Assembly (NCBI GenBank): GCA_040878265.1
Contig: JBBDMP010000004.1
Location: 1 to 44,317 of the forward strand
Source of the DNA: Gaiellales bacterium
GTDB lineage: Bacteria > Actinomycetota > Thermoleophilia > Gaiellales > Gaiellaceae
Length of the DNA: 44,317 nucleotides
Direction: 5' to 3'
Part shown: positions 21,207 through 41,525 of the stretch, piece after piece
Numbering within the stretch: the stretch's first letter is position 1
Layout: every line of letters begins with the position of its first letter
The notes under the pieces: model-generated
What the model was told of the DNA's origin: nothing
Seen by the model: only the letters and a program-made list of their open reading frames with translations
Databases searched by the model: none
Position numbers and translations under genes: made by a program

Positions 21207-22667
21207 CTACTGGTCGGTTCGCTCCAGGATCCAGAGTCCCGTGTTCATGTCGCTCGCGTAGCCGTAGCCGGTTTCCTCGTCGGTGACGATGCCCCAGACC
21301 TGCGGCATCTGCGACAGGACGCCGCGCTGCGCCGGCTTGACAGGGTTCTGGCCGGCCGGCGGGACGAAGAAAGCCACCTCGTGCGGTCTCGTCGGGTCGC
21401 TGGCGTCGACGACTCGGACGCCGTCCGAGTACCAGGAGATCCACACGTCCTCACCGACGAGCCAGTTGTTGTGGATCGTGTAGTCGCCGGATCCCGTCGG
21501 GCCGCCCGTGATCGAGTTCGGCGTCCGGAACTCGCCGATCTGTCGAGGCGCTGCCAGGTTCGAGTAGTCCCACACCCGCATGTAGCCGTTGCCTCCCTCG
21601 ATGCCCGGACCGGAGTTCTTGCAGAAGTCCTCGTCCGCGCTGAAGAGGAGCTTGCGCTCGTCGTCGTACATCGAGGAATGGGCATCCCCATCGGCATTCG
21701 CCGGGAACACCGCGCGACCTCGGAAGACCGGATTGGTGGGGCTCGTGACGTCGATGGCCACGTAGCCGCTGTCCCAGTAGGCGATGAAGGCGAGCTTGCC
21801 GTCGAGCGACGGCTCGATCCCGTGGCCGTAGACGCCGTCGGCGTCGCAGCCCTGGCCTGCCGCCGGCTGGAGGCCGCGGCTGAGGAAGCCCCAGTGCGAC
21901 TTGAGCTTGGGCATGGTCGGGTTCGTGATGTCGATCAGCCGGAACGGGCCACGCCCGGCCCTGTCCTCCCGGCCGGAGGGGGAGCTCGAGTCGGGCTCCT
22001 CCGCGGTCGGGTCAGTGGCGTAGGCGAAGGTCTTGCCCAGGTCGGAACGGTGCTCGATCTCGAACTCGTGCAATCCGCGCGTGCAGCAGCCGAAGCTCAG
22101 GAAGCCCAGCTTCTTCGGCTCCCGCGGATTGTTGACGTTCCAGAGCATGAGCCCGCGCGGGATCGAGCTGTCGAACCGCGAGCCGCCGCAGACCTGGATC
22201 CCGGCCGCGGCGATGTCCTTGCCCGCCCACGCTCCGAACCGAGCGGTATAGACGACAACGTCCTCGGCCGACGTCCCGGGTGGGTTGACAAGACGCGAGA
22301 CCATTCGCGGATTCTCCGGGTCGCGGGCGTCGACAACCGCGACGCCGTTCTTCGGGTCAGAGGGGCAGAAACGGGTCTTGCTCCCGCTGGACCAGTCCGT
22401 GAAGCCCCAGTGGCCGACGTAGGCGTAGCCCTCGTGCTCCCAGACGTCGGCGTTGAAGCCGCGGCCGCCGAGGTCCGTGTGGCCGACGACCCGCATGTTC
22501 TTCATCTCCGCGGCTTTCTGGCCGCCCGAGTAGGTCTTGTTCATCTGCTGCAGGAAGTGCCTCTCGTCCTTCAAGAGCTCGCTCCTGTTCGTAGGAGCGG
22601 TGAAGGCGATGGCCGCGAGCGCGAGCGCCGCGGAGGCGGCGACCGCGGCAGTCCAGAACTTCCGCAT
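21207..22667 (-). CDS. Secreted LVIVD-repeat (beta-propeller) protein
   Basis: Signal peptide MRKFWTAAVAASAALALAAIAF. Recurrent h-x-h-h-D-h-s-x-P-x-x-P units (AVVDARDPENP, LWNVNNPREP, RLIDITNPTMP, VAIDVTSPTNP, VRVVDASDPTRP). The opposite-strand 551-aa ORF is Arg/Val/Asp-biased and is rejected. Confidence 0.8.
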   Translation of the reverse strand: MRKFWTAAVAASAALALAAIAFTAPTNRSELLKDERHFLQQMNKTYSGGQKAAEMKNMRVVGHTDLGGRGFNADVWEHEGYAYVGHWGFTDWSSGSKTRFCPSDPKNGVAVVDARDPENPRMVSRLVNPPGTSAEDVVVYTARFGAWAGKDIAAAGIQVCGGSRFDSSIPRGLMLWNVNNPREPKKLGFLSFGCCTRGLHEFEIEHRSDLGKTFAYATDPTAEEPDSSSPSGREDRAGRGPFRLIDITNPTMPKLKSHWGFLSRGLQPAAGQGCDADGVYGHGIEPSLDGKLAFIAYWDSGYVAIDVTSPTNPVFRGRAVFPANADGDAHSSMYDDERKLLFSADEDFCKNSGPGIEGGNGYMRVWDYSNLAAPRQIGEFRTPNSITGGPTGSGDYTIHNNWLVGEDVWISWYSDGVRVVDASDPTRPHEVAFFVPPAGQNPVKPAQRGVLSQMPQVWGIVTDEETGYGYASDMNTGLWILERTDQ

Positions 22668-22847
22668 GCTGTTCCCCCTCCCTCTCCGCTGATGGTGCGC
22701 GGCAATTCTTCAGCACGGCGCCATAGGTTTCAAGGGCACGAGAGGGGCGCCGTCGCGAGACGCGAAAGAGATTTCCCTGCTCACGCGGGGAAACTAGTCA
22801 GAAGCATAGTTGCCGTGCGTCCCCTCCGTGGCCGATGATAAGTTCCA

Positions 22848-23063
22848 GTGGACGCGATCTTGCCCAGTCTCCTGAAAACCCCTTACGAGGAGCCGGAGAT
22901 CCTCGACTTCGGCTCGATTGCGGACCATACGTTCCTGCGCTGCGGGGGGACCGGCGTGAACGGCGGGGGACATACGCCTCCAAAGGACTTCCCGTATCCG
23001 CCCGCCTACCACCTCGACAAGTTCGGGGAGTGCTCAGCTCTAGCGCTGGCCGTCTCGCCCTGA
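22848..23063 (+). CDS. Putative RiPP precursor with a lasso-type leader and an atypical 42-aa core (module 1)
   Basis: GTG start; the in-frame stop TAA at 22839-22841 prevents any longer N-terminus. Residues 13-29, YEEPEILDFGSIADHTF, match the Y-x2-P-x-L-x3-G-x5-T-x lasso leader motif. They also align with the module-2 precursor leader YEKPEVKDYGDLRELTA. First gene of the exporter/B1/C/K/B2 operon. No obvious Shine-Dalgarno sequence. Confidence 0.6.
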   Translation: MDAILPSLLKTPYEEPEILDFGSIADHTFLRCGGTGVNGGGHTPPKDFPYPPAYHLDKFGECSALALAVSP

Positions 23064-24082
23064 GCGGGAGCGCTGCGCCAGGGCCGGGGGTCGACCAGCG
23101 AGAAGCTCTCGCCGAGCGCGCGGACTCCCGGGCGCCGGTCGTCGAGGTTCGTTCCGTCTTGCGGCGCTTCGGTCGTACGATCGCGCTGAACGATGTCTCC
23201 CTCGACCTCGCGGCGGGGGAGATCCATGCGCTGCTCGGTCCGAACGGGGCGGGGAAGACGACCCTACTTCGCATCCTGACGGGACTCGTGCACCCCAACG
23301 CGGGCACTGCGCGCGTCATGGGCTTCGACGCCGTCGCGAGTCCCCGAGCCCTGCGCCAGCGACTCGGGCTCGTCCCTTCGGGCGACCGTTCCTTCTACCT
23401 GCGCATCTCCGGACTCGAGAACCTGGTGTTCTTCGCGCGCCTCTACGGCATGAGGCGACGAGCAGCGGTCGCCCGCTCGAACGAGGTGCTCGAGGAGGTG
23501 GGCCTGCTCGAGGCTGCCCGCACCCGCGTCGGGCTCTACTCCCACGGAATGCAGAAGCGCCTTGCCGTCGCGCGCGCACTCTTGCCGCATCCGGCAGTGC
23601 TGGTGCTCGACGAGCCGACGCACGACCTTGATCCCCGCGCGGCGCGCGCGATCAGAGAGCTCGTCCGGGAGCTTGCCTCCTGCGGAGCCGCCGCCATCTG
23701 GGCGACGCAGCGGATCGAGGAGATCCGCGGCTTCGCGGACACCGTAACCCTTCTGCACCGCGGTGAGGTGCGCTTCAACGGCGGCGTCCCGGATCTGCTT
23801 GCCCACTCGATCCCGCGGCGCTACCTCCTCCGCGTCCGGAACGGTTCCTTCTCGGGCCGCCCGGCGGAGGCCGCCCTCAATACGGCTCTCGCCGGAGTAG
23901 GCACGATCGCCGACGCCGGCGAGAGCTCCGAGCACTATCTGCTTCAGCTCCAGCACGGTGTCATTCTCGGCGACGCGCTCAAACGCCTGACTGAGGCTAC
24001 TTTCCAGATCCTCACCTGTAGCGAGGAACGGTCGGAGCTCGAGGAGGCATTTCTTGCGCTCACGCCGGAGGGCTCCCAGTGA
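23030..24082 (+). CDS. ABC transporter ATP-binding protein
   Basis: Walker A GPNGAGKTT, signature-like SHGMQKRLAVA, Walker B VLVLDEPT. The start is uncertain. GTG 23030 is the nearest upstream canonical start before the conserved VEVRSVLRRFG strand. The track start at 22835 overlaps the precursor ORF and is unlikely. Confidence 0.85.
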   Translation: MLSSSAGRLALSGSAAPGPGVDQREALAERADSRAPVVEVRSVLRRFGRTIALNDVSLDLAAGEIHALLGPNGAGKTTLLRILTGLVHPNAGTARVMGFDAVASPRALRQRLGLVPSGDRSFYLRISGLENLVFFARLYGMRRRAAVARSNEVLEEVGLLEAARTRVGLYSHGMQKRLAVARALLPHPAVLVLDEPTHDLDPRAARAIRELVRELASCGAAAIWATQRIEEIRGFADTVTLLHRGEVRFNGGVPDLLAHSIPRRYLLRVRNGSFSGRPAEAALNTALAGVGTIADAGESSEHYLLQLQHGVILGDALKRLTEATFQILTCSEERSELEEAFLALTPEGSQ

Positions 24083-24936
24083 GCACTTTCGTCGAGCCGC
24101 TGCCCAGCCGTCTTGCGGTCCTCGTCGAGGACCTACGCAAGCTCCCGGCTTTTCTCCGCCGGGACTTCCTCGTCGCCTTGAGCTATCGGACGGCGTTCAT
24201 CTCCGACGCACTCGGTCTGTTCTTCGGCGCCTTCATCTTCTACTTCGTCGGCCTCATGGTCGATCCGACCAAGATCCCGACCTACGGAGACACCCGCGCG
24301 ACGTACATGGAGTTCGTTGCCATCGGTCTCGCGCTCGGTGTTTTCCTCCAGATCGGGCTCGGCCGGGTGGCGGCGGTCATGAACCGCGAGCAGCTCATGG
24401 GGACGCTCGAATCGCTGGTGGTCACGCCGACAGCCACCGCCACGATCCAGATCGGGTCGGTGGTCTACGACCTCATCTACATCCCGATACGGACGGCACT
24501 CTTCCTCCTCGCCATCGACGTCGGCTTCGGTCTCCACTTCCAGGCGGACGGCATTCTGCCGGCCGCCGTCATGCTTCTCTTCTTCATCCCCTTCGTGTGG
24601 GGGTTGGGCCTTGCTGCCGCGGGTGCCATGCTCACCTTCCGCCGCGGGGCGGGCGCGTTCGGACTAGGGATCGGTTTCCTGACGCTCGGATCGGGCGCAT
24701 ACTTCCCGCTCGAGCTCCTGCCCGGCTGGGTCCAGGACGTCTCCGTCGTCAACCCGATCACAGTCGCGATCGAGGGAATGCGTGAGACGCTGATCGGCGG
24801 CGTCGGCTGGTCCGGCGTCGCTACCGACCTGCTCGTGCTCGCGCCACTCTCGCTCTTCTCGCTCGTCGCCGGGGTCTTCATATTCCGGCTCGCTCAGTGG
24901 CGAGAGCGCCGTCAGGGGACCCTAGGGCTCTACTAG
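24079..24936 (+). CDS. ABC-2 type transporter permease
   Basis: 285 aa with about 6 hydrophobic segments. GTGA overlap with the ATPase stop. Confidence 0.85.
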   Translation: MSTFVEPLPSRLAVLVEDLRKLPAFLRRDFLVALSYRTAFISDALGLFFGAFIFYFVGLMVDPTKIPTYGDTRATYMEFVAIGLALGVFLQIGLGRVAAVMNREQLMGTLESLVVTPTATATIQIGSVVYDLIYIPIRTALFLLAIDVGFGLHFQADGILPAAVMLLFFIPFVWGLGLAAAGAMLTFRRGAGAFGLGIGFLTLGSGAYFPLELLPGWVQDVSVVNPITVAIEGMRETLIGGVGWSGVATDLLVLAPLSLFSLVAGVFIFRLAQWRERRQGTLGLY

Positions 24937-24940
24937 AGCG

Positions 24941-25210
24941 ATGGAGGTCACGGGCATCCAGAGGAACGGGGACGTCGCCTACCGCGAGCTCGCGTCTGGA
25001 GAGGGTGGCGTGCTGCTTCACCTCGGGACCGGCCAGTACTACGGCGTCAACCGCCTCGGCGCGGTCATCTGGAGCCTGCTCGACGGGGAGCGCACGGGGG
25101 ACGGAGTGGTCGCTGAGCTGCGGGCGCGTGTGGAAGACCCTCCACCGACGTTCATGGCGGACGTCGAGCGCTTTTTGGACGGGATGCGCCAACGTGCCCT
25201 CATCCGTTAG
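24941..25210 (+). CDS. PqqD-family protein (lasso B1 / leader-recognition element), module 1
   Basis: 89 aa. GGVLLHLGTGQYYGVNRLGAVIWSLLDGERT...VVAELRARV...FMADVERFLDGMRQRALI is a typical PqqD/RRE pattern. Confidence 0.85.
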   Translation: MEVTGIQRNGDVAYRELASGEGGVLLHLGTGQYYGVNRLGAVIWSLLDGERTGDGVVAELRARVEDPPPTFMADVERFLDGMRQRALIR

Positions 25211-25224: not shown

Positions 25225-27018
25225 GTGGGAGCCTTCGCCGCCGTCGCCTTCCGCTCGCGGCCTCCTGATTCAGAGGTCGTCACGCGGATGCTGGCTGCGG
25301 CCCCGCATCGGGGCGCCAGTGCGGAGGTCGTGTCGTGCGGCGACGCCGTCCTCGGCGTGAGCGGGAGTGTCGAGCTCGAGAATGCCTGGCTCGGACGGGA
25401 CAACGGCGTCGCAGCGGCGTTCGTGGGGAATCTCGACAACCGCGCCGAGCTCGCTGCTGAACTCGGCGCACCTCGGGATCACGGCCACGACGACCCTGCG
25501 AAGCTCGTGATCGCCGCGTACCGGCGGTGGGGAGAAGGCTTCCCCGCCCGGCTGCGCGGGAGCTTCAGTGGGGCCGTCGTCGACGAAAATGAGCTCGTCG
25601 CCTTCCGCGACCAGCTCGGCTTCGAGACGCTCTTCTACCGGGACGAGGAAACCGCGTTCCTCGCCGCGACGGAAGCGAAGCAGGTCGTCGCCGGAGCCGG
25701 CATTCCCCGTCGCCCCGAACTCGACGCGCTCCCGGGCATCTTCTATGGGCGTCTGCAGCCCGACCAGACGGCCCTCGAGGGCGTATACCGCTTTCCGATG
25801 GCATCGACCGCGCGAGTTGGCGCGGGGCGGCGGGCGTCCTTCCACCGTTACTGGGATCCGAGGGCGCTACTCGAGACAGCCCGGGTCTCGGACGACGAGG
25901 CACGCGAGCGGCTCGTGAAGCTGCTCGAGCGGGCGGTCGCCCGGACCGTGACGGGGAACGATGGCATCTCCCTAAGCGGCGGCGTTGATTCGCCAGCGGT
26001 GGCGGCGTTCGCCGTTTCGCCGCACATGCGGCTGGCGGGCCGGCCCCCGCTTGCCGTTTCGGCCGTCTACCCCGATCTACCGAACGTGAACGAGCTCTCG
26101 CACATCGAGGCGGTCGCGGACCTGCTCGGCCTCCCACTCCACACATACGTTCCTCATGCGAGACCGCTCGACGACGTCGCCTACTGGGTTGACGTTCTCG
26201 ACGGACCGGTCGACGTCCTCTCCGTCCCTGAGGTCGCGGAGAGCTACCGGGTGGCGCGCGCGGCGGGTGTCAGCACGGTCCTCACCGGCGAGCTCGCCGA
26301 GTACGTCTACGCGATCCGCCAGCACCTTCCCGGCCACCTGCTTCTGCACGGTCGCTGGCGGGCCTTTGCCCGCTGGGTCGACCAGGAGCGCAGCCGGGGC
26401 AGCTCTTGGCGCCGCATCGCCCGAACGCTCGCCCCCTCCGTCACCCCGTCCTTGCTCGCGACGGCGTACGTCCGCCTGCTCAAGCGCGACAACAGGCCCC
26501 TTCCCGTCTGGGTCGACCCCGCCCAAGTCGGGGGTCTCGGAAACCGGCTCGACCTGCGACGCCCGGCGCGTCGCCGGTGGAGCGAGTCGCAGCTCGACTC
26601 ATTCGGCGGCGGCGCCTCGATCAGCGTCGAGGCAGATGCGCTCTGTGCGGCGCTCTGCGGCGTGCGGGTGCGCCGGCCCCTGGCCGACATCGATCTCTGG
26701 GAGTTCTTCCTCAGCCTTCCGGCCGAGCGGAAGTTTCCCGACTCGGCGCCGAAGAGCCTCGTCCGCCAGGTCCTGCGTGGGCGGATCCCGGACACTGTGC
26801 TCGACCGGCGCGACCAGACCGTCTTCGACGACCACTACCTCGCCGCCGCCGACTATCCGGCCCTACGGCGGTGGATCCTCGACTCCGAGTACCGGCTCGA
26901 GGGAGTGGACTACAAGGTCCTCGCCGAGCGCCTGAACCGCGAGGAGATGGACGTGCACGAGCTTTCGTGGGCAAACGACCTCGCGCGGATCCACGCGTTC
27001 GTGAGCCTATGGGCGTAG
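25225..27018 (+). CDS. Asparagine-synthetase-like lasso cyclase (C), module 1
   Basis: PP-loop ISLSGGVDSPAVAAF. The N-terminus MGAFAAV lacks the glutaminase Cys2, as in lasso cyclases. 597 aa. Confidence 0.88.
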   Translation: MGAFAAVAFRSRPPDSEVVTRMLAAAPHRGASAEVVSCGDAVLGVSGSVELENAWLGRDNGVAAAFVGNLDNRAELAAELGAPRDHGHDDPAKLVIAAYRRWGEGFPARLRGSFSGAVVDENELVAFRDQLGFETLFYRDEETAFLAATEAKQVVAGAGIPRRPELDALPGIFYGRLQPDQTALEGVYRFPMASTARVGAGRRASFHRYWDPRALLETARVSDDEARERLVKLLERAVARTVTGNDGISLSGGVDSPAVAAFAVSPHMRLAGRPPLAVSAVYPDLPNVNELSHIEAVADLLGLPLHTYVPHARPLDDVAYWVDVLDGPVDVLSVPEVAESYRVARAAGVSTVLTGELAEYVYAIRQHLPGHLLLHGRWRAFARWVDQERSRGSSWRRIARTLAPSVTPSLLATAYVRLLKRDNRPLPVWVDPAQVGGLGNRLDLRRPARRRWSESQLDSFGGGASISVEADALCAALCGVRVRRPLADIDLWEFFLSLPAERKFPDSAPKSLVRQVLRGRIPDTVLDRRDQTVFDDHYLAAADYPALRRWILDSEYRLEGVDYKVLAERLNREEMDVHELSWANDLARIHAFVSLWA

Positions 27019-27923
27019 GCGGAGCGGTCAGCGGCGGAACGTGCTTCGGCTTCGAGGTCCGCTCTCCGCTTCCATTCAATTACCTTCGCGGCGGTGCCGG
27101 CGAGCCGCTCGCGATCCGGGAGCCCTCCAACGTGGCGGAGGTCACAAGGGATGACCTCGTCATCGAGTGGACGCCTACCCCGGAGCTCCCCTTCCACGCC
27201 CGGCTCTACTCGCATGAGGCCCTCTTCCGTCTCTGGATCGACGGTGCCGGGTGGTTCGAGGTCGATCCCGAGGCACGGGCGATCTCGCTGCCCGAGACGG
27301 ACAACCCGGTGCGGCGTGAGGAGCGCCTCTGGGGGATTCCGGCGATCCTCTGCTTCCTGTGGCGAGGCGACCTACCCCTCCACGCCGCCTCGGTGGAGGT
27401 CGATGGCGGCGCAATCCTCCTCTGCGCGCCGCGAACTTTCGGGAAGACCACCTTGGCCGCCGCATTCGTCCATCAGGGCTTTCGACTCCTCAGCGAGGAC
27501 GTGAGCTGTGTGCGCCTGAACGCCACGCCGAGCGTAATCCCAGGTCCTGCCATGCTGCGCCTCCGCCGGGACATAGCGGAGCGGCTGGACATTCCTCGTG
27601 CGCATCGCGTGGGAGAGCCAGACGACCGCATGCACCTCGCGCTCGACCCGGCGCAGCGGGGGAACTGCGATCCCATCCCGATCCGCGCTGTCGTCTTCCT
27701 CCGGGACGGAGACGACGAGGTCGCTCTGGAAGGTGCGCGGGCGTCTGACGCGATCCGCGATCTGTGGTCGCTCAGCTTCCGGCTCCCTTCTGACGCCGAC
27801 CGCGCTCGCTGCTTCGCCGGTGTGACAGACCTGGTAAATGCCGCGCCCGTGTGGAACCTTTCGTATCCGCGCCGCATCCACGCGTTGCGTGCCGCCGTAG
27901 AGAGAATTATCACCGATGCCTAA
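27009..27923 (+). CDS. HPr-kinase-like P-loop protein (putative precursor Ser kinase), module 1
   Basis: ATG 27009, in frame with the tail of track ORF 26406..27923. LHAASVEVDGGAILLCAPRTFGKTTLAAAFVHQGFRLLSEDVSCV mirrors the HPrK/P core H-G-x-L-V...G-x-S-G-x-G-K-S...L-x-x-D-D. Overlaps the C stop by 10 nt. Confidence 0.75.
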   Translation: MGVGGAVSGGTCFGFEVRSPLPFNYLRGGAGEPLAIREPSNVAEVTRDDLVIEWTPTPELPFHARLYSHEALFRLWIDGAGWFEVDPEARAISLPETDNPVRREERLWGIPAILCFLWRGDLPLHAASVEVDGGAILLCAPRTFGKTTLAAAFVHQGFRLLSEDVSCVRLNATPSVIPGPAMLRLRRDIAERLDIPRAHRVGEPDDRMHLALDPAQRGNCDPIPIRAVVFLRDGDDEVALEGARASDAIRDLWSLSFRLPSDADRARCFAGVTDLVNAAPVWNLSYPRRIHALRAAVERIITDA

Positions 27924-28329
27924 CGCCGCCACCCGTCCGCTTAGCCTTCCGGCGAAGGTCGAGCTCGCCCTGCGCATCTGGACGACCTTCCTCGTTGTCC
28001 AGGGCGGCATCCGCCGCCAGCCCTTGCCTGACTTCGTCGCGCAGCTGGGCGGCTCAGGACGCCAGCTGCGCGAGAGTCACTCGCCCGCGCAGCTGAGCCG
28101 GGCTGTCTACAAGAGCCTTCGGATCGGGAGTCGGCGACCGAAGTGTCTCGTCAATTCGCTTGTCCTCTTCCACTTGCTGCGGACCCAGGGCGATCCCGCC
28201 GAGCTCGTCATCGGCCTGCCCGAGGAGCCTGCCGACCACTTCGCGCATGCCTGGGTCGAAGTCGAGGGCGTCGACGTCGGTCCGCCACCGGGCCGAAACG
28301 GCCACCGCGAGCTCGCCCGCTTCCGCTGA
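27916..28329 (+). CDS. Transglutaminase-like Cys protease (lasso B2 leader peptidase), module 1
   Basis: 137 aa. PKCLVNSLVLFHLL (catalytic Cys) ... DHFAHAWVEVEGVDV (His) is a typical lasso B2 core. Confidence 0.88.
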   Translation: MPNAATRPLSLPAKVELALRIWTTFLVVQGGIRRQPLPDFVAQLGGSGRQLRESHSPAQLSRAVYKSLRIGSRRPKCLVNSLVLFHLLRTQGDPAELVIGLPEEPADHFAHAWVEVEGVDVGPPPGRNGHRELARFR

Positions 28330-29411
28330 TGACGAGCGCGAGCTACGCGGCCGAGGAGGTGTTGGGAAGCGACGACATCTGGACGGGCGTCGGGCGGGTG
28401 ATCGACCGGGCTCCCAGCCTGGCGCACCTGCGCAGGCACCGGCTTCACCTTCTCGCCGCCCACAGATGGCGCTCGCTCGGGCGGCCGCTCCCGCCCGAGC
28501 TCGCGGACGACGAGCGGCGTGCCGCCATGGCGGCACTTGCTGTGCCCATCCTGCTCGAGCGGGTGCGAGCGGGCTGCGACGATCCCGTCATCGTCTTCAA
28601 GGGCCCTGAGGTCGCGGCGCGCTATCCAAACCCCGCACTGCGCGATTTCGTCGATCTCGACATCCTCGTCCCCGATGCCGCTCAGGCGCAACGGTCTCTC
28701 ATCGAAGCCGGCTTCCGTGAGTTCGGCGATCCGGAGCTGTACGTCGACATCCATCATCTGCGCCCGCTCTTCTCGGCCCCCCTGCAGCTGCGGGTCGAGG
28801 TGCACAGCGCGCCCAAGTGGCTCGACGAGCTCGAGCCGCCGCCGGCCAGCGAGCTCTTCTCCGGGGCTGTTCCGAGCGCGACCGGCGTTGAAGGGATCCT
28901 GGCGCTCCCGCCGGCTCAGCACGCGGTCGTCCTGGCCGTGCACTCCTGGGCCCACGAGCCGCTTGCGCGCCTCGGCCACCTGGTCGACATCGCGGCGATT
29001 TTGGACGGCACCGATCGCAACGCGGCGGCCGAGATCGCAGGCGCCTGGGGCGTGCGCAGTCTCTGGGACACGACGCTCGACGTCGCCGACGCGGTCTTCC
29101 TGGGCAGGCGCGGGCGAGCGGGCGTCCTCAACGTCTGGGCGCGCCATCTCCGCGCGGCGCGCGAGCGGACGGTGTTCGAGCATCACGTCGAGCGCTGGAT
29201 GTCGGGGTTCTGGGCCCTCCCGGCGGGCAAGGCGGCCCGGCAGACGGCAGAGGAACTCTGGTGGGATATCAGGCCCACCCCGGGAGAGTCGTGGCGGCGA
29301 AAGCTCTCCCGCACGGGACGGGCCTTCCGCGACGCGTTCGTCCCGCGCTCGGAACACGACCGGGCGCTCGGCCCCGAAGCGTCCCGCCGTCGCGACCGCC
29401 CGTCCGTCTGA
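28329..29411 (+). CDS. Uncharacterised nucleotidyltransferase-family protein (type found in kinase-containing lasso clusters)
   Basis: ATG 28329 with a TGATG overlap. VIVFKGPEVAARYPNPALRDFVDLDILVPDAAQAQ carries the h-K-G...R-x-x-x-D-h-D-h-L-V polymerase-beta-like NTase motif. Confidence 0.75.
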   Translation: MTSASYAAEEVLGSDDIWTGVGRVIDRAPSLAHLRRHRLHLLAAHRWRSLGRPLPPELADDERRAAMAALAVPILLERVRAGCDDPVIVFKGPEVAARYPNPALRDFVDLDILVPDAAQAQRSLIEAGFREFGDPELYVDIHHLRPLFSAPLQLRVEVHSAPKWLDELEPPPASELFSGAVPSATGVEGILALPPAQHAVVLAVHSWAHEPLARLGHLVDIAAILDGTDRNAAAEIAGAWGVRSLWDTTLDVADAVFLGRRGRAGVLNVWARHLRAARERTVFEHHVERWMSGFWALPAGKAARQTAEELWWDIRPTPGESWRRKLSRTGRAFRDAFVPRSEHDRALGPEASRRRDRPSV

Positions 29412-29519: not shown

Positions 29520-30236
29520 GTGCAGCGGAAGCGTGAACTGATGCGATCCAAGGACCCGGGACGGGCAAGCGGCGTGGAGCCCCAGGAGCTTTCCGTTACG
29601 GTTCTCGCGGCCGACGACATCCGCGGCCGTCGCGCGGAGTCGATCCTCGCGGCGGGCGGTCTCCGCTCCAGGGGGCGGGCGGCGCGTCCGGAGGGTCTTC
29701 TCGACGACGAGCGCAGCTTGGAGATCCGGGCGATCGTCGTCGTCGCCGAGGAGTTCGATGCCGAAGTCGGGGGCTGGTTTCGCGCGCTGCGCCAAAGGCT
29801 TCCGGCCGCCGCGCTCGTCTGCGTCATTGGATCGCTCACGCCGCGCGTCGTCCGCGACGCGCTCGCGAGCGGGGCCGATGGCCTCCTCCTCGAGCAAGAC
29901 GCCGAGGCGGGTCTCGGCCCTGCCGTACGAGCGGCTTGCGCAGGCCAGATCACCCTTCCCCGCGAGCTCGGCCGGGATCTGGCCGCACCGAGGCTCTCCT
30001 CGCGCGAGAAGCAGGTCCTCGGCATGGTCGTCATGGGCTTTACGAACGGCGAGATCGCGCGAAAGCTGTACCTGGCGGAGAGTACCGTCAAGAGCCACCT
30101 CTCCTCCTCGTTCGCCAAGCTCGGCGTGCGTTCTCGCAACGAGGCGACCGCCCTCATCCTCGACCCAGAGCGTGGCCTCGGGACGGGTATCCTGGCCATC
30201 TCCGAAGGTGGGGAGCGCCTTGGGCCGGGCAGCTGA
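29520..30236 (+). CDS. LuxR-family transcriptional regulator with a degenerate receiver-like N-terminal domain
   Basis: The C-terminal part LSSREKQVLGMVVMGFTNGEIARKLYLAESTVKSHLSSSFAKLGV is a LuxR HTH. The N-terminal domain keeps LAADD. It lacks the h-h-M-D-L acceptor Asp (IVVVAEEFD) and has Glu where the conserved Lys sits (GLLLE). GTG 29520 or ATG 29541 may be the start. Confidence 0.8.
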   Translation: MQRKRELMRSKDPGRASGVEPQELSVTVLAADDIRGRRAESILAAGGLRSRGRAARPEGLLDDERSLEIRAIVVVAEEFDAEVGGWFRALRQRLPAAALVCVIGSLTPRVVRDALASGADGLLLEQDAEAGLGPAVRAACAGQITLPRELGRDLAAPRLSSREKQVLGMVVMGFTNGEIARKLYLAESTVKSHLSSSFAKLGVRSRNEATALILDPERGLGTGILAISEGGERLGPGS

Positions 30237-30276: not shown

Positions 30277-30600
30277 ATGGAGGAAGCGACCGTGCCCGGA
30301 ACCGGCGACGAATCCCTTCTTGCCGCCACCGTGCGGGTGCCCGAGCACGTCGTTTACCGCGCGTTCGTCAAGGAGACTGTCGTTCTGAACCTGCAGACCG
30401 GCAAGTATCACGGCCTCAACCCGACCGGCGGCCGGATGCTCGAGGTTCTGACCAAGGCCGAGAACATCGGCGAGGCAACGGCCAAGCTCGCCTCGGAGTA
30501 CGGTCAGCGCCAGGGCGAGATCGAGCGTGATGTGTTGGCCTTGTGCAAGGACCTGATCGAGCGCGGGCTCATCGAGCTCCATTCCGGTGCCGACCGGTAG
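30277..30600 (+). CDS. PqqD-family protein (lasso B1 / RRE), module 2
   Basis: ATG 30277 (Met174 of track ORF 29758..30600) with GGGGAGG 10 nt upstream. VVLNLQTGKYHGLNPTGGRMLEVLTKAENIGEATAKLASEY...DVLALCKDLIERGLIE is a PqqD pattern. Confidence 0.85.
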   Translation: MEEATVPGTGDESLLAATVRVPEHVVYRAFVKETVVLNLQTGKYHGLNPTGGRMLEVLTKAENIGEATAKLASEYGQRQGEIERDVLALCKDLIERGLIELHSGADR

Positions 30601-31564
30601 GCAGGCCCGGCGCACGGGGCTCAAACGCGGCTACGCGTTCGGACTCGAGCTATCGGCCCGCGTGCCCATCCCAGTCGCAGCGGCGAACGGCCGCGGCAGC
30701 GGCAGGGCGACCACGTGGGAGCTCGTCACCGACGTCGAATTGGCGTCGACGTGGAACGCGAAGGAAGCCGTCTCGCTGCTCGACCGCAGGCACCTGAGCG
30801 GCCGCCCCATGCTCGCGATCGACCACCACGAGGCGCTCGGGTACCGCCTCGCGGCTCCCGGCTTCGGGCGCCACATCGTGTCCGGCGACGGCCAGACGGT
30901 CCGGTCTGTCCTCCCGAACGTGGCGCCGTGGCGCTGGCAGCGGCTGCTCTTCGCCCAGGTCCTTCCGCTGGCTGCGAATCTCCAAGGCCTGGAAGTGCTC
31001 CACGCTAGCGCGGTGGAACTGGACGGCCACGCGCACGCTTTCGTAGCACCGGCGGGCACGGGCAAGACGTCCGTCGCCGCCCACCTCATCGCGAGCGGCG
31101 CGTCTTTCGTCACCGACGACGCCCTCGCCGTCGAGACGACCGATGCCGCAGCGCTGGTGCATTCCGGCGCGGGCGTCACGAGCATCGATCGCAGCGAGCT
31201 TCGTGCGATGACCCGGGAAGGCCGCGAGCGGTTAGGTGAGATTCTCGGGCGGAGCGACTTCAAGGTCCAGGTCGCCGTCGAGCCGGTGCCGCAGGCGCTT
31301 CCGCTCGAGCGCGTCTTCTTCCTCGAGCGCGATGCATCGGCCGAACGGGTGGAGATCGAGGAACACCGGTCGCCCGATCCCGCCCTGCTGCTCTCCAGCA
31401 CGTTCATCTGGTATCTCCGCAGTCCGCAGCGCCTGCTTCGGCACCTCGACGCCTGCGCGCGACTCGCACGCACGGCCCGCGTCTTCCACGTTCGGATCCC
31501 GGCTTCCAGCCCGGCCCGCGCGGTCGCCTCCGAGATCGAGCACCACATTCGAGGGGATCGATGA
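30587..31564 (+). CDS. HPr-kinase-like P-loop protein (putative precursor Ser kinase), module 2
   Basis: LHASAVELDGHAHAFVAPAGTGKTSVAAHLIASGASFVTDDALAV matches the HPrK/P core and the module-1 paralogue. Overlaps the B1 stop by 14 nt. Confidence 0.75.
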   Translation: MPTGRQARRTGLKRGYAFGLELSARVPIPVAAANGRGSGRATTWELVTDVELASTWNAKEAVSLLDRRHLSGRPMLAIDHHEALGYRLAAPGFGRHIVSGDGQTVRSVLPNVAPWRWQRLLFAQVLPLAANLQGLEVLHASAVELDGHAHAFVAPAGTGKTSVAAHLIASGASFVTDDALAVETTDAAALVHSGAGVTSIDRSELRAMTREGRERLGEILGRSDFKVQVAVEPVPQALPLERVFFLERDASAERVEIEEHRSPDPALLLSSTFIWYLRSPQRLLRHLDACARLARTARVFHVRIPASSPARAVASEIEHHIRGDR

Positions 31565-32019
31565 ACCGTCCCACGGCGATCAGTCCCCCGTCGGCCGCCG
31601 CACGGGAGGCGTGGAGGCGACGCTTGCCCGCGTCGCGCAAGCTCGCCCTGGCGAGGGAGATCCTGGTGACGTACCCGCGTGTGCGGTGGTGGCTCCGGCA
31701 CAAGGAGCTCCCCGCGGTGATCGCGGCACTCCGCGCGGGTGATCGTCCGGCGGAACAGCCGAACGGCGACCAGATTCTGATGGGCATCCGGCTCGGCCGT
31801 GTCGTCCGGCGGACGCTCGGTGTGCTGCCCGCCGACTCGCGCTGCCTCGTGCGCTCGCTCGTCCTGACGTCGCTGCTCGCGCAGCGCGGCATCGACTCGA
31901 AGCTCGTGATCGGTGTGAAGGCGGAGCACAGCTTCGAGGCGCACGCTTGGGTCGAGTGCGCCGGAGTCCCCCTGTTGCCCCCCGGCGAGGAGGACTACGG
32001 GCGGCTCGTGGAGTTGTGA
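31561..32019 (+). CDS. Transglutaminase-like Cys protease (lasso B2), module 2
   Basis: ATGA overlap with the kinase gene. SRCLVRSLVLTSLL ... FEAHAWVECAGVPL provides the Cys/His core. Confidence 0.88.
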   Translation: MNRPTAISPPSAAAREAWRRRLPASRKLALAREILVTYPRVRWWLRHKELPAVIAALRAGDRPAEQPNGDQILMGIRLGRVVRRTLGVLPADSRCLVRSLVLTSLLAQRGIDSKLVIGVKAEHSFEAHAWVECAGVPLLPPGEEDYGRLVEL

Positions 32020-33947
32020 TGGCCGTCGGAACCGCCGTCTATCCCGTACTTGCAGGCGTCTTCGACCCGACGGCGACCTTCGACTTCGACGGGTCGCGCG
32101 CCGTGCTGGGCGGCGTTCTCGAGCGCGAAGGAGACGGCGACGCCGTCGCGGCGGGGCAACTCGCCGCCGTCCGTACGCCTGCACGGGGCCGCCGTACCTC
32201 GGACGAGCGGTTCCTTTGCCTGCTCGCCGGCCGCATCTACAACCTGGGCGAGCTCGCCGGGTCGAGTCGAGCCGAAGACCCCGAGGTGGTCCTGGCGAGA
32301 CTCTGGGGGGAGCGCGGAGACGCTTTCCTCGGACAGCTTTCGGGTTCGTTCGCGTTCGCGCTGTGGGACCGGGAGGAGCGGCGCGGCGTGATCGTGCAGG
32401 ATCAGGTCGCCGCCAGGTCGGTCTATTACTGCACGTCTGGATCTCGCCTCTTCTTCGCCTCCGACATCCGTCCGCTGCTCGCGGTGCTGCCGACACGCCC
32501 GGCCCCGGATACCGTCTCGGTCGTCCACTGGCTCGCCAACAGCCCGCCCCCGGGGCAGCGGACGATGTACGAGGGCATCGAGCGTCTCGGACCGGGCTAC
32601 ATGCTCGAGTTGCGCGACGGACGATGGGCACGACGTCGCTACTGGGAGCCGCGGTACCGGACGCCTGTCCGCCGTTCGCATGGCGAAGTGAGCGAGGAGC
32701 TCTGGACGGTCGTGTCCAAGGCGGTAGGTGCGCGGCTGGCCGCCGGCGGCTCGATCGGCATCGTCATGAGCGGCGGTGTCGACTCTTCGACCGTTGCGAC
32801 CGCGGCGATGGAGGCGCGCAACGGGCTTCCGGCGCCGCGCGGCTACTCGGCGGTCTTCCCGGACGAGCCGAAGATGGACGAGTCCCTCCGGATCCAGGCG
32901 CTCGCCGAGGGGATCGGCCTGCCGAGCACTCAGATGGAGGTCGAGCCCGGCGGCCTCGTGGCGCTCCTGCTCGAGTACGTCGCCCGCTGGGACCTTCCGC
33001 TGTCCGGGCCCGGCTATCTGCTCGAGCAACCGTTGCTCGCGCGCGCGGCTGCAGACGGGGTCGACGCTCTTCTCGACGGGCAGGGCGGCGACGAGGCGTT
33101 CGGCCACGCGCCCTACCTCCTGGCGGACCGGATCCGCCACGGCAGGCTGATCTCGAGCATCCGGCTGGCGCGCCGCTTCCCGCTCGTCTTCGAACGAACG
33201 CCGTGGAAGGTCTCGCTGCAGATCTGGAAGCTGTTCGGCCTGAAGGGAGCGGTCCCGTACGGGATCCACAACGCGGTTCGCGCGCGCCGCGGCGCGGAGC
33301 ACCACGCGCCGAAGCTGCTTACGGGGGAGAGCGGACGCCTCTATTTCGAGTCGGACGACCCCTGGGCCTGGAAGGCCGTGGAGAGCGGTCCGTTGTGGTG
33401 GCGCTACAAGCTGAGCACGCTGACGAAGATTCGCGAAGACGTGGGGCTCGGCGAGTACCTCCGGCACCGGGCGGCGATGGCCGGGCTGGAGGCGCGGCCG
33501 CCGCTGCTCGATCTCGACCTGGTGGAGTTCGCGCTCGGCGTCCCTCCCGCCCTCGAGTTCGATCAAGCCGCCGACCGGCCCCTGATCCGTGAGGGCATGC
33601 GCGGGCGCGCTCCCGACTATGTGAGGCTCTGGCGGGAGAAGAGCAACCTCGGGCCGTTCTACCACGAGACGCTCTCGGGCCATGATCTCGAAGTCATTCG
33701 CGACGTGCTCGGAGCGGAGGACGCCGAGATTCGCGCCTTCGTCCGTCCCGAGATCATTCGTGACCTCGTCGAGCAGGTCCCGCGGGTCGGAGAGCCCGGC
33801 TGGCTGAAGTGGGGGACGACGCTGTTCTGCCTATTCAGCGGCGAGTGCTGGCTTCGCCAGCAATCCGATCCCTCGTTCGCGCAGCGCCTGCGCGAGACGG
33901 CCGACCTCACGAGGCCTCGAGCTCGCGTGCACCACGCTCCGGTATGA
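32019..33947 (+). CDS. Asparagine-synthetase-like lasso cyclase (C), module 2
   Basis: ATG 32019 overlaps the B2 TGA (GTGATGG). PP-loop IVMSGGVDSSTVATAA is present, with no N-terminal Cys2. 642 aa. Confidence 0.88.
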   Translation: MAVGTAVYPVLAGVFDPTATFDFDGSRAVLGGVLEREGDGDAVAAGQLAAVRTPARGRRTSDERFLCLLAGRIYNLGELAGSSRAEDPEVVLARLWGERGDAFLGQLSGSFAFALWDREERRGVIVQDQVAARSVYYCTSGSRLFFASDIRPLLAVLPTRPAPDTVSVVHWLANSPPPGQRTMYEGIERLGPGYMLELRDGRWARRRYWEPRYRTPVRRSHGEVSEELWTVVSKAVGARLAAGGSIGIVMSGGVDSSTVATAAMEARNGLPAPRGYSAVFPDEPKMDESLRIQALAEGIGLPSTQMEVEPGGLVALLLEYVARWDLPLSGPGYLLEQPLLARAAADGVDALLDGQGGDEAFGHAPYLLADRIRHGRLISSIRLARRFPLVFERTPWKVSLQIWKLFGLKGAVPYGIHNAVRARRGAEHHAPKLLTGESGRLYFESDDPWAWKAVESGPLWWRYKLSTLTKIREDVGLGEYLRHRAAMAGLEARPPLLDLDLVEFALGVPPALEFDQAADRPLIREGMRGRAPDYVRLWREKSNLGPFYHETLSGHDLEVIRDVLGAEDAEIRAFVRPEIIRDLVEQVPRVGEPGWLKWGTTLFCLFSGECWLRQQSDPSFAQRLRETADLTRPRARVHHAPV

Positions 33948-33991
33948 GCCCTGAGGACATCCGACCTTTCTCGTACCGACCTTTTTCCGCC

Positions 33992-34020
33992 TTGTCTTCG
34001 CGCTGCACCGCGAGTAGCCT
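33992..34020 (+). promoter_or_regulatory. Candidate sigma-70-type promoter for the module-2 precursor
   Basis: TTGTCT (33992-33997), a 17-nt spacer, then TAGCCT (34015-34020, TANNNT form). It lies in the relatively AT-richer 107-nt gap after the cyclase gene, about 35 nt upstream of the precursor ATG. Confidence 0.35.
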
Positions 34021-34055
34021 CGATCGGGAAGGAAACTGCGACCAAGGAGACTTCG

Positions 34056-34208
34056 ATGGAAGAGCGCAAGGACGTAGCGCCCGCGTACGAGAAGCCGGAG
34101 GTCAAGGACTATGGCGATCTGCGCGAGCTGACTGCGACTCAGGCGACGGGGACGCAGACGGACGTGCCGAAGGGAACCCCGGTTCCGCCGTTCACGATCT
34201 TCTCGTAG
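34056..34208 (+). CDS. Lasso peptide precursor (50 aa; below the ORF-track cutoff), module 2
   Basis: Translated by hand from ATG 34056, which has AAGGAG 6 nt upstream. Sequence: MEERKDVAPAYEKPEVKDYGDLRELTA-TQATGTQTDVPKGTPVPPFTIFS. The leader matches Y-x2-P-x-L-x3-G-x5-T-x. The core has Asp at position 9 and a C-terminal Ser. A strong terminator follows. Confidence 0.85.
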   Translation: MEERKDVAPAYEKPEVKDYGDLRELTATQATGTQTDVPKGTPVPPFTIFS

Positions 34209-34230
34209 CCGTCGGTCGCCAAGCGATTCT

Positions 34231-34264
34231 CGAGACCCGGCCTGCGAGCCGGGTCTCGCGTTTT
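34231..34264 (+). terminator. Rho-independent terminator after the module-2 precursor
   Basis: 11-bp perfect stem CGAGACCCGGC/GCCGGGTCTCG with loop CTGCGA, followed by GCGTTTT. Confidence 0.8.
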
Positions 34265-34331
34265 CCGGCTCTACCAGTCTGTTCGTCTCGAGGTCATACT
34301 GGAAGGTAGGAGCTTTGGCTCCGAGTGCTCG

Positions 34332-35132
34332 ATGGGCGGCGACGACCTCACGTTGAAAGTCTGGCGGCTCCACCCGAACGGGTGCCGCATCATCCCGGCC
34401 GAGAGGACGCTCCAGGGCACGGCGAATCGAGATGCCCTCCGCTGGTGCGGCCCCTTCACGCATGCGAATGCAGCAGGCTGGTGGCTGTACCCCCCGGTCG
34501 ACGTCGACATCGTCTGGCGGGGTGGCCGCGAGTTCGAGCACACGCAGCTGTCGCCGTACGATGACGCCGACAGTCACCTCATCCGCTTCCTCGCAGAGGG
34601 AATGGATGGTGTGACACCCGGAGAGTGGCTGCCGCCGGGAGGCCGGACGAAGTTCAGCTGGGGCCTGGTCGAGGAGGGGGTCGTCCAGATCTGGACCGGC
34701 TGCATCTTCCAGATGCCACCCGGATGGGGGCTGCATCTGCGGAGTCCGATCAACTTTCCGCCCGCAGCGTTCCACGTAATGGAGGCGATCATCGAGGCGG
34801 ACTGGCTGCAGTACGACATCTGGCTGAACCTCGCGTTCGACCGGCCGAACGAACCGGTACAGATCCGGAGGGACGGCCCGCACCCGATCGCCCAGCTCGT
34901 GCCCGTCACGCCCTCGAGCTACGACCGAGCCTGGCAGCTCGACAGCGAGCTCGTGAATCGCAACACTCCGGAGGCCAGCCGCGTCTTCGAATACTTCGTC
35001 GAGTACAACCAGAAGAAGTTTGCGAGCGGCGGGAAGCAGCTGCGGTCGCTCGAGGACCCCGCGCAGCGCAAGGACTCGGCGACCTACCACCGTGAGCGCA
35101 AGCGCCGTCGAGCCGAGGTCCGGGGCGAGTGA
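34332..35132 (+). CDS. Uncharacterised protein, paralogue A (no family assigned with confidence)
   Basis: 266 aa with high GC3. Shares the blocks C-x-P-x3-AN-x-AGW-x-L...W-x-GG, PPGW-x-L...P-x-N-x-P and E-x-DW with the ORF at 36158..36991. Translationally coupled (GTGA) to the GNAT gene. Confidence 0.7.
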   Translation: MGGDDLTLKVWRLHPNGCRIIPAERTLQGTANRDALRWCGPFTHANAAGWWLYPPVDVDIVWRGGREFEHTQLSPYDDADSHLIRFLAEGMDGVTPGEWLPPGGRTKFSWGLVEEGVVQIWTGCIFQMPPGWGLHLRSPINFPPAAFHVMEAIIEADWLQYDIWLNLAFDRPNEPVQIRRDGPHPIAQLVPVTPSSYDRAWQLDSELVNRNTPEASRVFEYFVEYNQKKFASGGKQLRSLEDPAQRKDSATYHRERKRRRAEVRGE

Positions 35133-36148
35133 CGCCGATCCGGCCGGCACGCGACGAGGACGCGGCGAGCGTCGCCGCCCTCGTGAACGAGATCACCGCC
35201 GACTGGTTCGCCTGGGCGCCGATCACCGCGGATGACCTGCTCGACCGGTGGCGCTCACCTCGAGTCGACCGGCAGGACTTCGTCGTCGCCGAAGGCTCGA
35301 TCCTCGGCTATGCCTCGGTGACCGCGGCGGACCCGGGACGGACGCGCCTCTGGGCCGAGCTCCGGGCCATTTCCGGCGAGGACGAGAGCCGCGTCTCCGC
35401 GAGCCTCCTCGCCGCGATCGAGGCTCGGGCACGAGAGCTGGCCGCTCGGGCTGATCCGGGGGCGCGCGTCGTGCTCCGCACGCAGGTTGCCGAGGTGCAG
35501 GCGCAGCTGGGGCGGCTGCTCGCCGAAGCCGGTTACGCGGTCGTGCGCCACGCCGAAAACGCCGTCCGGTCGCTCGAGCCGCCGCCGCCCCCGCCCTCGT
35601 GGCCGCCGGGGATAACTCCTCGCCGCTTCCGGACGGGCGAGGAGCGGACGATCTGGGAGCTGGCGATGGACGCGCTCGCGAGCAGCTGGGACTTCGTGCG
35701 CGAGCCCTTTCCCTCCTGGCTAGCGTCGCAAGTCGAGAGCCCCGCTTTCGACCCGGAGCTCTGGTTTGTCGCCGAGCGCGACGGCGACATCGCCGGCGTT
35801 CTCTACTGCCGCAACCATCCGTCCGATCCGGAGGTCGCCTGGCTCGACGTCCTCGCCGTCCGCCCTGAATGGCGGCGACGGCGGCTCGGCACCGCGCTCA
35901 CGCAGGAGGCGCTACGCGAGTTCCATCGGCGGGGCAAACGCCGGGCCGGGGTCGGTATCGATCCCGACAACCCCACCGGAGTTGCCCGGTTGCTGGCAAA
36001 GCTCGACTTCGAGATCGTTCAGCGCTTCTCGACCTTCGAGAAGGAGCTCCGGCCCGGGCGGCCCGCAGCCCGGCTGCTCGGACGTTCCGCCCGAAACGCC
36101 GGGCAGGCCTGGCGGCGCCTCGTTTCGGGAGCGACCCGAGCGCACTAG
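35129..36148 (+). CDS. Tandem-GNAT N-acetyltransferase (MshD-like two-domain architecture)
   Basis: The C-terminal GNAT has acetyl-CoA motif A, LDVLAVRPEWRRRRLGTALTQEAL. The N-terminal half (IRPARDEDAASVAALVNEI...) is a second, more degenerate GNAT fold. 339 aa. Confidence 0.8.
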   Translation: MTPIRPARDEDAASVAALVNEITADWFAWAPITADDLLDRWRSPRVDRQDFVVAEGSILGYASVTAADPGRTRLWAELRAISGEDESRVSASLLAAIEARARELAARADPGARVVLRTQVAEVQAQLGRLLAEAGYAVVRHAENAVRSLEPPPPPPSWPPGITPRRFRTGEERTIWELAMDALASSWDFVREPFPSWLASQVESPAFDPELWFVAERDGDIAGVLYCRNHPSDPEVAWLDVLAVRPEWRRRRLGTALTQEALREFHRRGKRRAGVGIDPDNPTGVARLLAKLDFEIVQRFSTFEKELRPGRPAARLLGRSARNAGQAWRRLVSGATRAH

Positions 36149-36157
36149 ACTCGGACA

Positions 36158-40765: not shown

Positions 40766-40828
40766 TGAAGCAAACGAGTCGGCCGCGAAAGGCCAGAGGA
40801 GGAAAACTCTCCTCGCGGCGGGTAGACG

Positions 40829-41515: not shown

Positions 41516-41525
41516 GACGCGAGAT

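Follow-up and report, generated by a model that had tools for sequence, protein, structure and literature searches.

The window analyzed in this study is the whole stretch of 44,317 nucleotides at positions 1 to 44,317 (forward strand) of contig JBBDMP010000004.1 from a Gaiellales bacterium (assembly GCA_040878265.1). It has a G+C content of 68% and contains a small open reading frame (ORF), named A1, for a precursor peptide which combines the leader of a lasso peptide with a long core that carries no acid at the canonical ring positions. The surrounding genes were mapped by Pfam and NCBIfam scans and their start codons were read off the sequence (Table 1). They include a PqqD-like recognition element for peptides that are made by ribosomes and modified after translation (RiPPs), termed B1, an Asn-synthetase-like cyclase (C1), an HprK-related kinase and a leader peptidase (B2). 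The genes from A1 to the NTP_transf_5 nucleotidyltransferase gene overlap or abut. Thus, A1 heads one translationally coupled operon of eight genes and 6.6 kb. A LuxR gene is located downstream of it at 29520–30236, and a second lasso-type module of the same window is referred to as module 2.

Table 1: Coordinates of A1, its sequence features, the operon genes and the genes of module 2 in the window.
Feature	Coordinates	Strand	Remarks
A1, 71-aa precursor peptide gene	22848..23063	+	GTG start; stop 23061-23063
Conserved leader motif Y13-E-E-P-E-I-L-D-F-G-S-I-A-D-H-T28-F29	22884..22934	+	70-homologue alignment
42-aa core LRCGGTGVNGGGHTPPKDFPYPPAYHLDKFGECSALALAVSP	22935..23060	+	After Thr28-Phe29
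Cys32 codon	22941..22943	+	Predicted disulfide partner of Cys62 (23031-23033)
Lys46 codon (AAG), conserved Lys	22983..22985	+	11 residues upstream of Asp57
D57-K-F-G-E61-C-S63, signature D-x-F-x-E-x-S	23016..23036	+	Candidate isopeptide acceptor(s), candidate phospho-Ser
ABC transporter ATPase	~23030..24082	+	Pfam ABC_tran; probable GTG start at 23030, uncertain
ABC-2 type permease	24079..24936	+	Pfam ABC2_membrane, E 1.2e-15
B1, PqqD-like RiPP recognition element	24941..25210	+	Pfam PqqD, E 1.3e-16
C1, Asn-synthetase-like lasso-cyclase-type enzyme, 597 aa	25225..27018	+	Pfam Asn_synthase and GATase_7
HprK-related kinase	27009..27923	+	NCBIfam HprK_rel_A, E 1.3e-14, below curated cut-off; ATG overlaps C1 stop codon
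B2, transglutaminase-like leader peptidase	27916..28329	+	Pfam Transglut_core3
NTP_transf_5 nucleotidyltransferase	28329..29411	+	Pfam NTP_transf_5; ATG overlaps B2 stop (TGATG)
HprK-like kinase, module 2	30587-31564		
B2, module 2	31561-32019		
C2 cyclase, module 2	31947-33947		
A2 precursor, module 2	34056-34208		Leader MEERKDVAPAYEKPEVKDYGDLRELTATQATGTQTDVPKGTPVPPFTIFS

The translation of A1 is VDAILPSLLKTPYEEPEILDFGSIADHTFLRCGGTGVNGGGHTPPKDFPYPPAYHLDKFGECSALALAVSP, which is split at the predicted cleavage point into the leader part VDAILPSLLKTPYEEPEILDFGSIADHTF and the core LRCGGTGVNGGGHTPPKDFPYPPAYHLDKFGECSALALAVSP. The G+C content of the ORF at the three codon positions (0.65/0.48/0.82) is coding-like. 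A search with the single sequence revealed five relatives at E values of 1e-17 to 1e-24. Comparison of close pairs of the peptide gene gave 237 synonymous versus 97 non-synonymous codon changes (e.g., 9:1, 14:2 and 7:0 in individual pairs). The peptide gene is under purifying selection; A1 did not arise as an ORF by chance, nor has it decayed. No model matched A1 in the Pfam and NCBIfam scans. A promoter and terminator scan of the region 22600–23250 gave nothing on the plus strand, so that the start of A1 may be the GTG at 22848 or a later codon. The 180-bp intergenic region contains a single sigma-70-like promoter match, which faces away from A1 and towards a divergent gene (21207–22667, minus strand). 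The product of this gene is a secreted-looking protein of 486 aa with LVIVD repeats. At its 3′ end A1 is overlapped by 34 nucleotides by the probable start of the ABC ATPase gene, and the gene calls of two related loci (L002 and L008) have the same overlap. The GTG at 23030 lies, in another frame, within the A1 codons for G-E-C-S...SP, and nucleotide conservation at 23030–23063 could partly serve translational coupling too.

The catalytic motifs of C1 (PP-loop), the kinase (H-K-D-D) and B2 (Cys/His) are intact. C1 carries the PP-loop SLSGGVDS at residue 251 and has no N-terminal Cys. Residues H122, G142-K143-T144, D161 and D185 of the kinase are at least 95% conserved among 40 sequences, and Cys77 and His111 of B2 are invariant. 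B2 reached 53.7 bits with the NCBIfam model lasso_biosyn_B2 (cut-off 33); the matches of B1 to the NCBIfam lasso PqqD chaperone models were below their cut-offs. C1 is 35–60% identical to its orthologues in related loci and 28% identical to C2, the cyclase of module 2. The two kinases of the window are 27% identical. A sequence search of the PDB yielded distant Asn-synthetase-type matches only for C1 and no match for the kinase. No signal-peptidase domain was found in the Pfam scan of the operon genes.

The size of the A1 family was determined by profile searches. A word-indexed search revealed 301 relatives, and an exhaustive search of 1.84 billion representatives with a hidden Markov model yielded 294 clusters (50% identity) at E ≤ 1e-3. 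No named protein was among the relatives found by these profile searches. A genome scan with a six-sequence alignment gave one narrow pattern and no confirmed relative; repeated with a 70-sequence alignment, it gave 32 loci. All of the 32 genomes are metagenome-assembled genomes (MAGs), which belong to Gaiellaceae, Solirubrobacteraceae, Acidimicrobiia, Chloroflexota, Gemmatimonadota, Wenzhouxiangella and Steroidobacteraceae. Overall, the relatives originate from MAGs of uncultured Actinomycetota, Chloroflexota, Gemmatimonadota and Gammaproteobacteria. In the searchable literature, which did not comprise subscription-only papers, there was no description of the family, and motif strings such as GSIADHTF and DKFGECS occurred in no paper. 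A1 belongs to a large, conserved and apparently undescribed family of lasso-leader precursors from uncultured soil bacteria.

Gene context was counted in 20 metagenome loci and in the 32 species-representative genome loci. A C1-type cyclase and an HprK-like kinase were each present in 30/32 genome loci, B2 in 28/32, B1 in 27/32 and the ABC ATPase in 24/32. The NTP_transf_5 gene is accessory: 4 of the 32 genome loci have it, as do the loci of the close relatives L061, L062 and L063. Contigs of close relatives keep the order peptide, ABC, ABC-2, PqqD, cyclase, and one of them (L062) contains the entire eight-gene operon at 48–65% identity. Across the metagenome and genome loci the gene order is shuffled and the gene content is constant, which indicates a functional unit. 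The original prediction had made its case dependent on the conservation of the ORF in syntenic loci, and the ORF is indeed conserved there beside the same operon. A second cyclase, a DUF6065 or a GNAT gene was not found in the flanks (up to 10 kb per side) of the 32 genome loci. Consequently, the operon is independent of module 2. In L062 an orthologue of the LuxR gene lies at the contig end, so that module 2 might follow it. In three long-read MAGs of the MFD set (L036, L037 and L045) the cyclase and ABC genes appeared as several tblastn fragments in differing frames. This fragmentation looks like the result of homopolymer indel errors of the assembly and not like real pseudogenes.

The leader is nearly invariant in the family and follows the pattern M-x-Y-E-x-P-x-[IV]-x-D-[FY]-G-S-I-A-[DE]-H-T-F. 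In an alignment of 70 diverse homologues P16, G22, I24, A25 and T28 were invariant, and D20, S23, H27 and F29 were conserved to at least 90%. The spacing corresponds exactly to the lasso leader motif Y-x2-P-x-I-x3-G-x5-T-x (Y13, P16, I18, G22, T28), with Thr at position −2. Because of this exact canonical spacing, binding of the leader by B1, the RiPP recognition element (RRE), and cleavage by B2 after the HTF sequence, i.e. after Phe29, are the natural predictions. The alignment of residues 13–29 with the module-2 leader YEKPEVKDYGDLRELTA of A2, on which the original prediction was based, was reproduced with Y, E, P, E, D, G and T as identical residues. None of the NCBIfam lasso leader models matched A1, yet A2 was matched.

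Re-translation confirmed the previous description of the core, namely 42 aa with Leu30 as the first residue, no acid at positions 7–9 (G-V-N, with Asn38 encoded by AAC at 22959–22961), two Cys residues (Cys32 and Cys62, 30 residues apart) and a Ser-Pro end. The G-runs reported for the core are also present, at corrected coordinates (six G at 22944–22949 and five G at 22965–22969 instead of 22943–22949 and 22965–22971). Of the features of canonical lasso systems, A1 has the leader and is accompanied by genes for B1, B2 and C; an acid at positions 7–9, a small first residue (Gly, Ala, Ser or Cys) and a core of at most 33 aa are absent. The small first residue is a soft criterion on its own.

The core is not hypervariable, unlike that of ordinary lasso families. 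In the 70-sequence alignment D57, E61 and S63 were invariant. The strict signature [D]-x-[F/Y/W/H]-x-E-x-S occurs near the C-terminus in 265 of the 299 unique cores; its anchor acid is Asp in 259 of these 265, and the gap to the Glu is three residues in 246. A Lys is found 6–13 residues upstream of the anchor acid in every one of the 265 cores, compared with 141 ± 8 (maximum 162) in shuffled cores, and 8–11 residues upstream of the anchor Asp in 242. The distance from this Lys to the acid has a standard deviation of 1.17. The distance from the N-terminus to the acid varies from 14 to 55 residues, with a standard deviation of 5.3. Core length is 25–43 aa in the family with a mode of 28–29, the 42 aa of A1 being near the upper limit, and insertions fall between position ~5 and the conserved Lys. 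As many as 19 different residues were observed at core position 1 (most commonly T, Q, D, S, A, L and I), followed by [T/R/N]-[P/C/T]-G at positions 2–4. An acid at positions 7–9 was present in 58/265 cores, which is below the value for shuffled cores (95 ± 7.5), and some members, for example P0066, have no acid at all ahead of the invariant Asp. No single shifted cleavage offset restored a canonical ring throughout the family. The last residue is Ser in 159/265 and Pro in 55/265 cores; the near-invariant Ser is the internal one of E-x-S, 2–12 residues from the C-terminal end.

The number of Cys residues is even in 261/265 cores. A Cys precedes the conserved Lys in 106 cores; of these, 105 have an even count over the whole core, and 100 an odd count in the part after the Lys. 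Since parity is restored only with the N-terminal arm, the arm seems to be part of a disulfide-bonded product. The 48 cores in the sub-family of A1 are arranged as x-R-C-(5-17 aa)-P-K / D-x(6-9)-D / K-F-G-E-C-S-tail, and in them the Cys at core position 3 matches the Cys of E-C-S in number. Another sub-family, K-G-C-x3-C-H-L-D (TTPGGxxKGCxxNCHLDSFTENS..., e.g., L043 10001–10141, P0090 and P0095), has a CxxxCH motif between Lys and Asp, which could form a local disulfide or, together with His, Asp and Glu, a metal site. The divergent members P0198, P0205, P0261 and P0147 carry long Cys-rich extensions past E-x-S with 6–10 Cys residues, e.g. ...DKCCEYSGHTSGIDQCCCEACNIPGCPNPTCGGNVSC. Judging from these sequences, fusion of the signature module with knottin-like tails is evidently possible.

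The peptide, its leader and its core signature are conserved in about 300 clusters together with the same set of enzymes, whose catalytic motifs are kept. On balance we favor the view that A1 encodes a functional precursor, that its RiPP family is lasso-derived and uncharacterised, and that its product is cross-linked non-canonically via Asp57 or Glu61. This agrees with the first of three readings of the original prediction, a novel topology or chemistry made by lasso-type enzymes, which has become the leading explanation given the conserved family, its linkage to B1, B2 and C, the missing canonical acceptor and the invariant Lys...D-x-F-x-E-x-S. In the proposed pathway B1 would bind the YxxPxI...G leader and the kinase would phosphorylate the conserved Ser63 on the linear precursor. 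The latter step is placed there because lasso kinases, which carry the H-K-D-D motif, act on linear precursors (PMC9266682) and an HprK-like kinase modifies an internal Ser in the LPP family (PMC13381572). B2 would then cut after Thr28-Phe29. As core positions 7–9 carry neither Asp nor Glu, the cyclase cannot form an N-terminal ring of 7–9 residues; instead, C1 would adenylate the invariant Asp57 (or Glu61) and close a non-canonical lactam. The side chain of Lys46 appears to be the best-fitting amine partner, because the distance between Lys and acid is fixed and the N-terminal distance and residue 1 are variable. The Cys32-Cys62 disulfide would tie the N-terminal arm to the tail, and the ABC-2 pump would export the product.

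The Lys-linked ring itself is a tentative proposal; it is the likeliest of the candidate products, but we give it less than an even chance. It may be a side-chain-to-side-chain ring with a free N-terminal arm and a C-terminal tail that is perhaps threaded, and it may be accompanied by an arm-to-tail disulfide lock in the Cys-containing sub-families and by an internal phospho-Ser beside the ring. A switch of the nucleophile in a lasso-cyclase homologue, from the N-terminus to the amine of the invariant Lys with attack on the invariant Asp or Glu 8–15 residues downstream, is accordingly a tentative idea with less than an even chance. Several points weigh against such a product. All proposed chemical steps are derived from conservation, and the four invariant residues (Lys, Asp, Glu and Ser) could instead be needed for binding to a target or for recognition by the kinase. 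To our knowledge, every characterised lasso cyclase uses the alpha-amine. In the only known case of a Lys isopeptide in a lasso peptide, lariocidin B, the bond comes from a clostripain-like peptidase rather than from the cyclase (PMC11451635). The commonest sub-families have Ser or Gly after the Lys and a Lys-to-Asp distance of 8–9, which would also suit a canonical ring after a second cleavage. Two loci (L026, 905–997, and L028, 2001–2093) encode a canonical-looking member with HAY for HTF and the short core ASHGSSIDFQRLPAPSF, in which Ala1 and Asp8 are present and the Lys and E-x-S are missing. The cluster around it contains the C1-type cyclase, the kinase, B1 and B2, as elsewhere in the family. 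This member may be an ancestral or reverted form. Finally, an AlphaFold2 model of A1, calculated with its alignment, had a mean confidence score (predicted local distance difference test, pLDDT) of 63.6 and a weak hairpin around DKFGE only; it was uninformative and was not used.

A giant head-to-side-chain lariat would retain the only nucleophile known for lasso cyclases. Here B2 would cut after Phe29 and the alpha-amine of Leu30 would be joined to Asp57 or Glu61, which results in a ring of 28 or 32 residues (14–55 in the family) with the Cys32-Cys62 disulfide beside the isopeptide bond. The two-Cys members, which pair core residue 3 with the residue after the invariant Glu and thereby probably bring the N-terminus near E-x-S, are consistent with this structure, and the canonical-looking member of L026 has an architecture compatible with the alpha-amine right after the HT[FY] site. 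We nevertheless consider the lariat unlikely, because rings of 14–55 residues would have to be made within one orthologous enzyme family from 19 different first residues, characterised cyclases tolerate even a one-residue change of ring size poorly (PMC13352647), and the absolutely conserved, distance-constrained Lys is left unexplained. An extended leader, the second reading of the original prediction, would involve a second cut, following or replacing that of B2, directly behind the conserved Lys, the next residue being ringed onto the invariant Asp to give a paeninodin-like lasso of ~20 aa with a Ser-rich tail. Such a cut fits the commonest sub-families: the Lys-to-Asp distance is 8 or 9 in 179/265 cores, Ser or Gly directly follows the Lys in 123, and sequences such as QTPGxGTK/S..., TTPGGxxK/GC... 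and DNPGKGDK/S... (slash, second cut) would give 8–9-membered rings starting with Ser or Gly and tails of 11–12 aa that commonly end in Ser. Moreover, the GTK sub-family has Thr at −2 of that cut. In the sub-family of A1, however, the Lys is followed by Asp and the ring would have 8–11 residues, 11 in A1 itself (DFPYPPAYHLD). The specific ring GGHTPPKD closing on Asp47 that had been suggested is not conserved, since many relatives have Gly, Ser or Asn directly behind the Lys. The Cys parity described above disfavors removal of the arm, no second protease is conserved across the loci, the canonical Thr(−2) spacing indicates a cut after HTF, the residue preceding the Lys is more often Pro, Asp or Gly than Thr, and the disulfide of the CxxxCH sub-family would span the proposed ring. 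In view of these observations an extended leader is distinctly unlikely.

Formation of a linear or merely disulfide-bonded, phosphorylated and perhaps glycosylated product without any macrocycle has a parallel in the LPP family, where a leader of the lasso type, an RRE and an HprK-like kinase yield a polyphosphorylated peptide that is linear and whose 45-aa core contains an internal phospho-Ser (PMC13381572). D-x-F-x-E-x-S would then be a kinase recognition motif and the cyclase homologue, for instance, a scaffold or an amidation enzyme. The kinase is linked to the peptide as tightly as the cyclase. LPP clusters, however, contain neither cyclase nor B2 and rely on an SpI peptidase, whereas cyclase and B2 accompany most members of the A1 family, the PP-loop of C1 is intact and C1 lacks the N-terminal Cys required for glutamine-dependent amidation. 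Therefore, this possibility is very unlikely. Finally, A1 might be a decayed precursor, i.e. a pseudogene inactivated by a D9N exchange (the third reading of the original prediction), an artefact of a frameshift in a G-run or a chance ORF ahead of the ABC gene. At first glance this is in line with the missing acid at positions 7–9, with Asn38 being one transition from Asp, with the two G-runs and with the lack of any Pfam or NCBIfam match. In contrast, about 300 relatives share the core signature, an acid at positions 7–9 is depleted throughout the family, and the same operon type occurs in 32 genomes. Asn38 is located in a 7-residue indel stretch that has no counterpart in the close relatives P0003 and P0004, and P0005 contains the identical 19 residues RCGGTGVNGGGHTPPKDFP spanning both G-runs, which excludes a frameshift there. 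With the synonymous excess in addition, we regard the chance of a decayed precursor as negligible.

Module 2 (30587–36991) is located 1.2 kb downstream of the A1 operon and consists of genes for an HprK-like kinase, B2, C2, A2, a DUF6065 protein, a GNAT protein and a second DUF6065 protein. A2 passes the NCBIfam model lasso_leader_L3; its predicted core starts with TQATGTQTD and ends in Ser. Module 2 has no recognisable PqqD/B1 gene of its own, and only one B1 was recognised in both modules together. This single B1 (24941–25210) may serve both A1 and A2, whose leaders share 7/17 residues. An 80-aa ORF right after the second DUF6065 gene (36988–37230, minus strand) looks strongly coding (third-position G+C of 0.91) and has no Pfam match; a divergent RRE of module 2 is one conceivable identity. 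The modules are flanked at 38043–44172 by genes for a GFO/IDH/MocA oxidoreductase, a Bac_transf sugar transferase, a formyltransferase, a DegT aminotransferase and a GT2 glycosyltransferase. Genes for an oxidoreductase and a sugar transferase 67–72% identical to those of the window adjoin the nucleotidyltransferase gene in L062. These polysaccharide-type flanks recall paeninodin and LPP clusters within capsule loci.

The family comprises about 300 clusters and at least 32 species-level genomes from four phyla. Lasso mining rules which demand an acid at positions 7–9 and a small first residue would probably miss it despite the full machinery. Whichever product is made, be it a Lys-linked ring, a giant lariat or a lasso processed in two steps, the known scope of lasso cyclases would be widened. 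A Lys-linked ring, if true, would mean that lasso machinery makes a new topological class of RiPPs, and that this class is widespread among the uncultured Actinomycetota and Chloroflexota of soils. The canonical-looking, kinase-associated module 2 alongside offers a natural comparison within the window.

Class I lasso peptides of actinobacteria such as sviceucin, siamycin and aborycin have leaders of the actinobacterial type, disulfides and alpha-amine rings of 7–9 residues. The A1 family shares with them the type of leader and even Cys numbers, which suggest ring-tail or tail-tail disulfides. Leu as first residue is found in citrulassin. The longest known lasso peptide is pandonodin with 33 aa, and known rings comprise 7–9 residues (PMC13352647, review of June 2026). 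With 42 aa the A1 core exceeds this maximum, and it lacks the acceptor at positions 7–9. Asn1 occurs in metanodin, which was billed as having an 'unprecedented ring'; in fact, the ring is an ordinary one, and the cluster is proteobacterial with a fused B protein (PMC12670498). The proposed kind of Lys link has a single precedent among lasso peptides, the isopeptide bond of lariocidin B ('class V', PMC11451635) to a Lys side chain. That bond joins Lys2 to the C-terminal carboxylate in addition to the Ser1-Asp8 ring and depends on the clostripain-like LrcF. In contrast to the lariocidin B cluster, the A1 operon has no clostripain-like peptidase.

The LPP family (Popov et al. 2026, PMC13381572) resembles the A1 family in the reuse of a lasso-type leader, the long core (45 aa) and the internal phospho-Ser, the last being a candidate only in A1. 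LPP genes are often located beside a canonical lasso cluster and polysaccharide genes, as in the window. LPP differs in the lack of cyclase and B2, in its SpI-type signal peptidase, its MsbA-like pump, its leader YxxPxVLxHQxIxFETxxS and its occurrence in Bacillota. The A1 family, unlike LPP, has retained C and B2, and its members come from Actinomycetota, Chloroflexota and other phyla.

The paeninodin/pseudomycoidin type of Bacillota and some Proteobacteria shares with the A1 family the YxxPxL...T-x leader, split B1 and B2 proteins, an Asn-synthetase-like cyclase, an HprK-like kinase with the H-K-D-D motif, NTP_transf_5 and a transporter. Its cores are about 20–23 aa long; they begin with a small residue, have Asp at position 8 or 9, and their Ser is strictly at the C-terminus. 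In contrast, the cores of the A1 family comprise 25–43 aa with a variable residue 1, usually no acid at positions 7–9 and an internal Lys...D-x-F-x-E-x-S; A1 itself ends in Ser-Pro, and its cyclase C1 is only 28% identical to the canonical-looking C2. The A1 family resembles a kinase-associated pathway of the paeninodin type and departs from it in three features of the precursor: the acceptor at positions 7–9, the small residue 1 and the length of the core.

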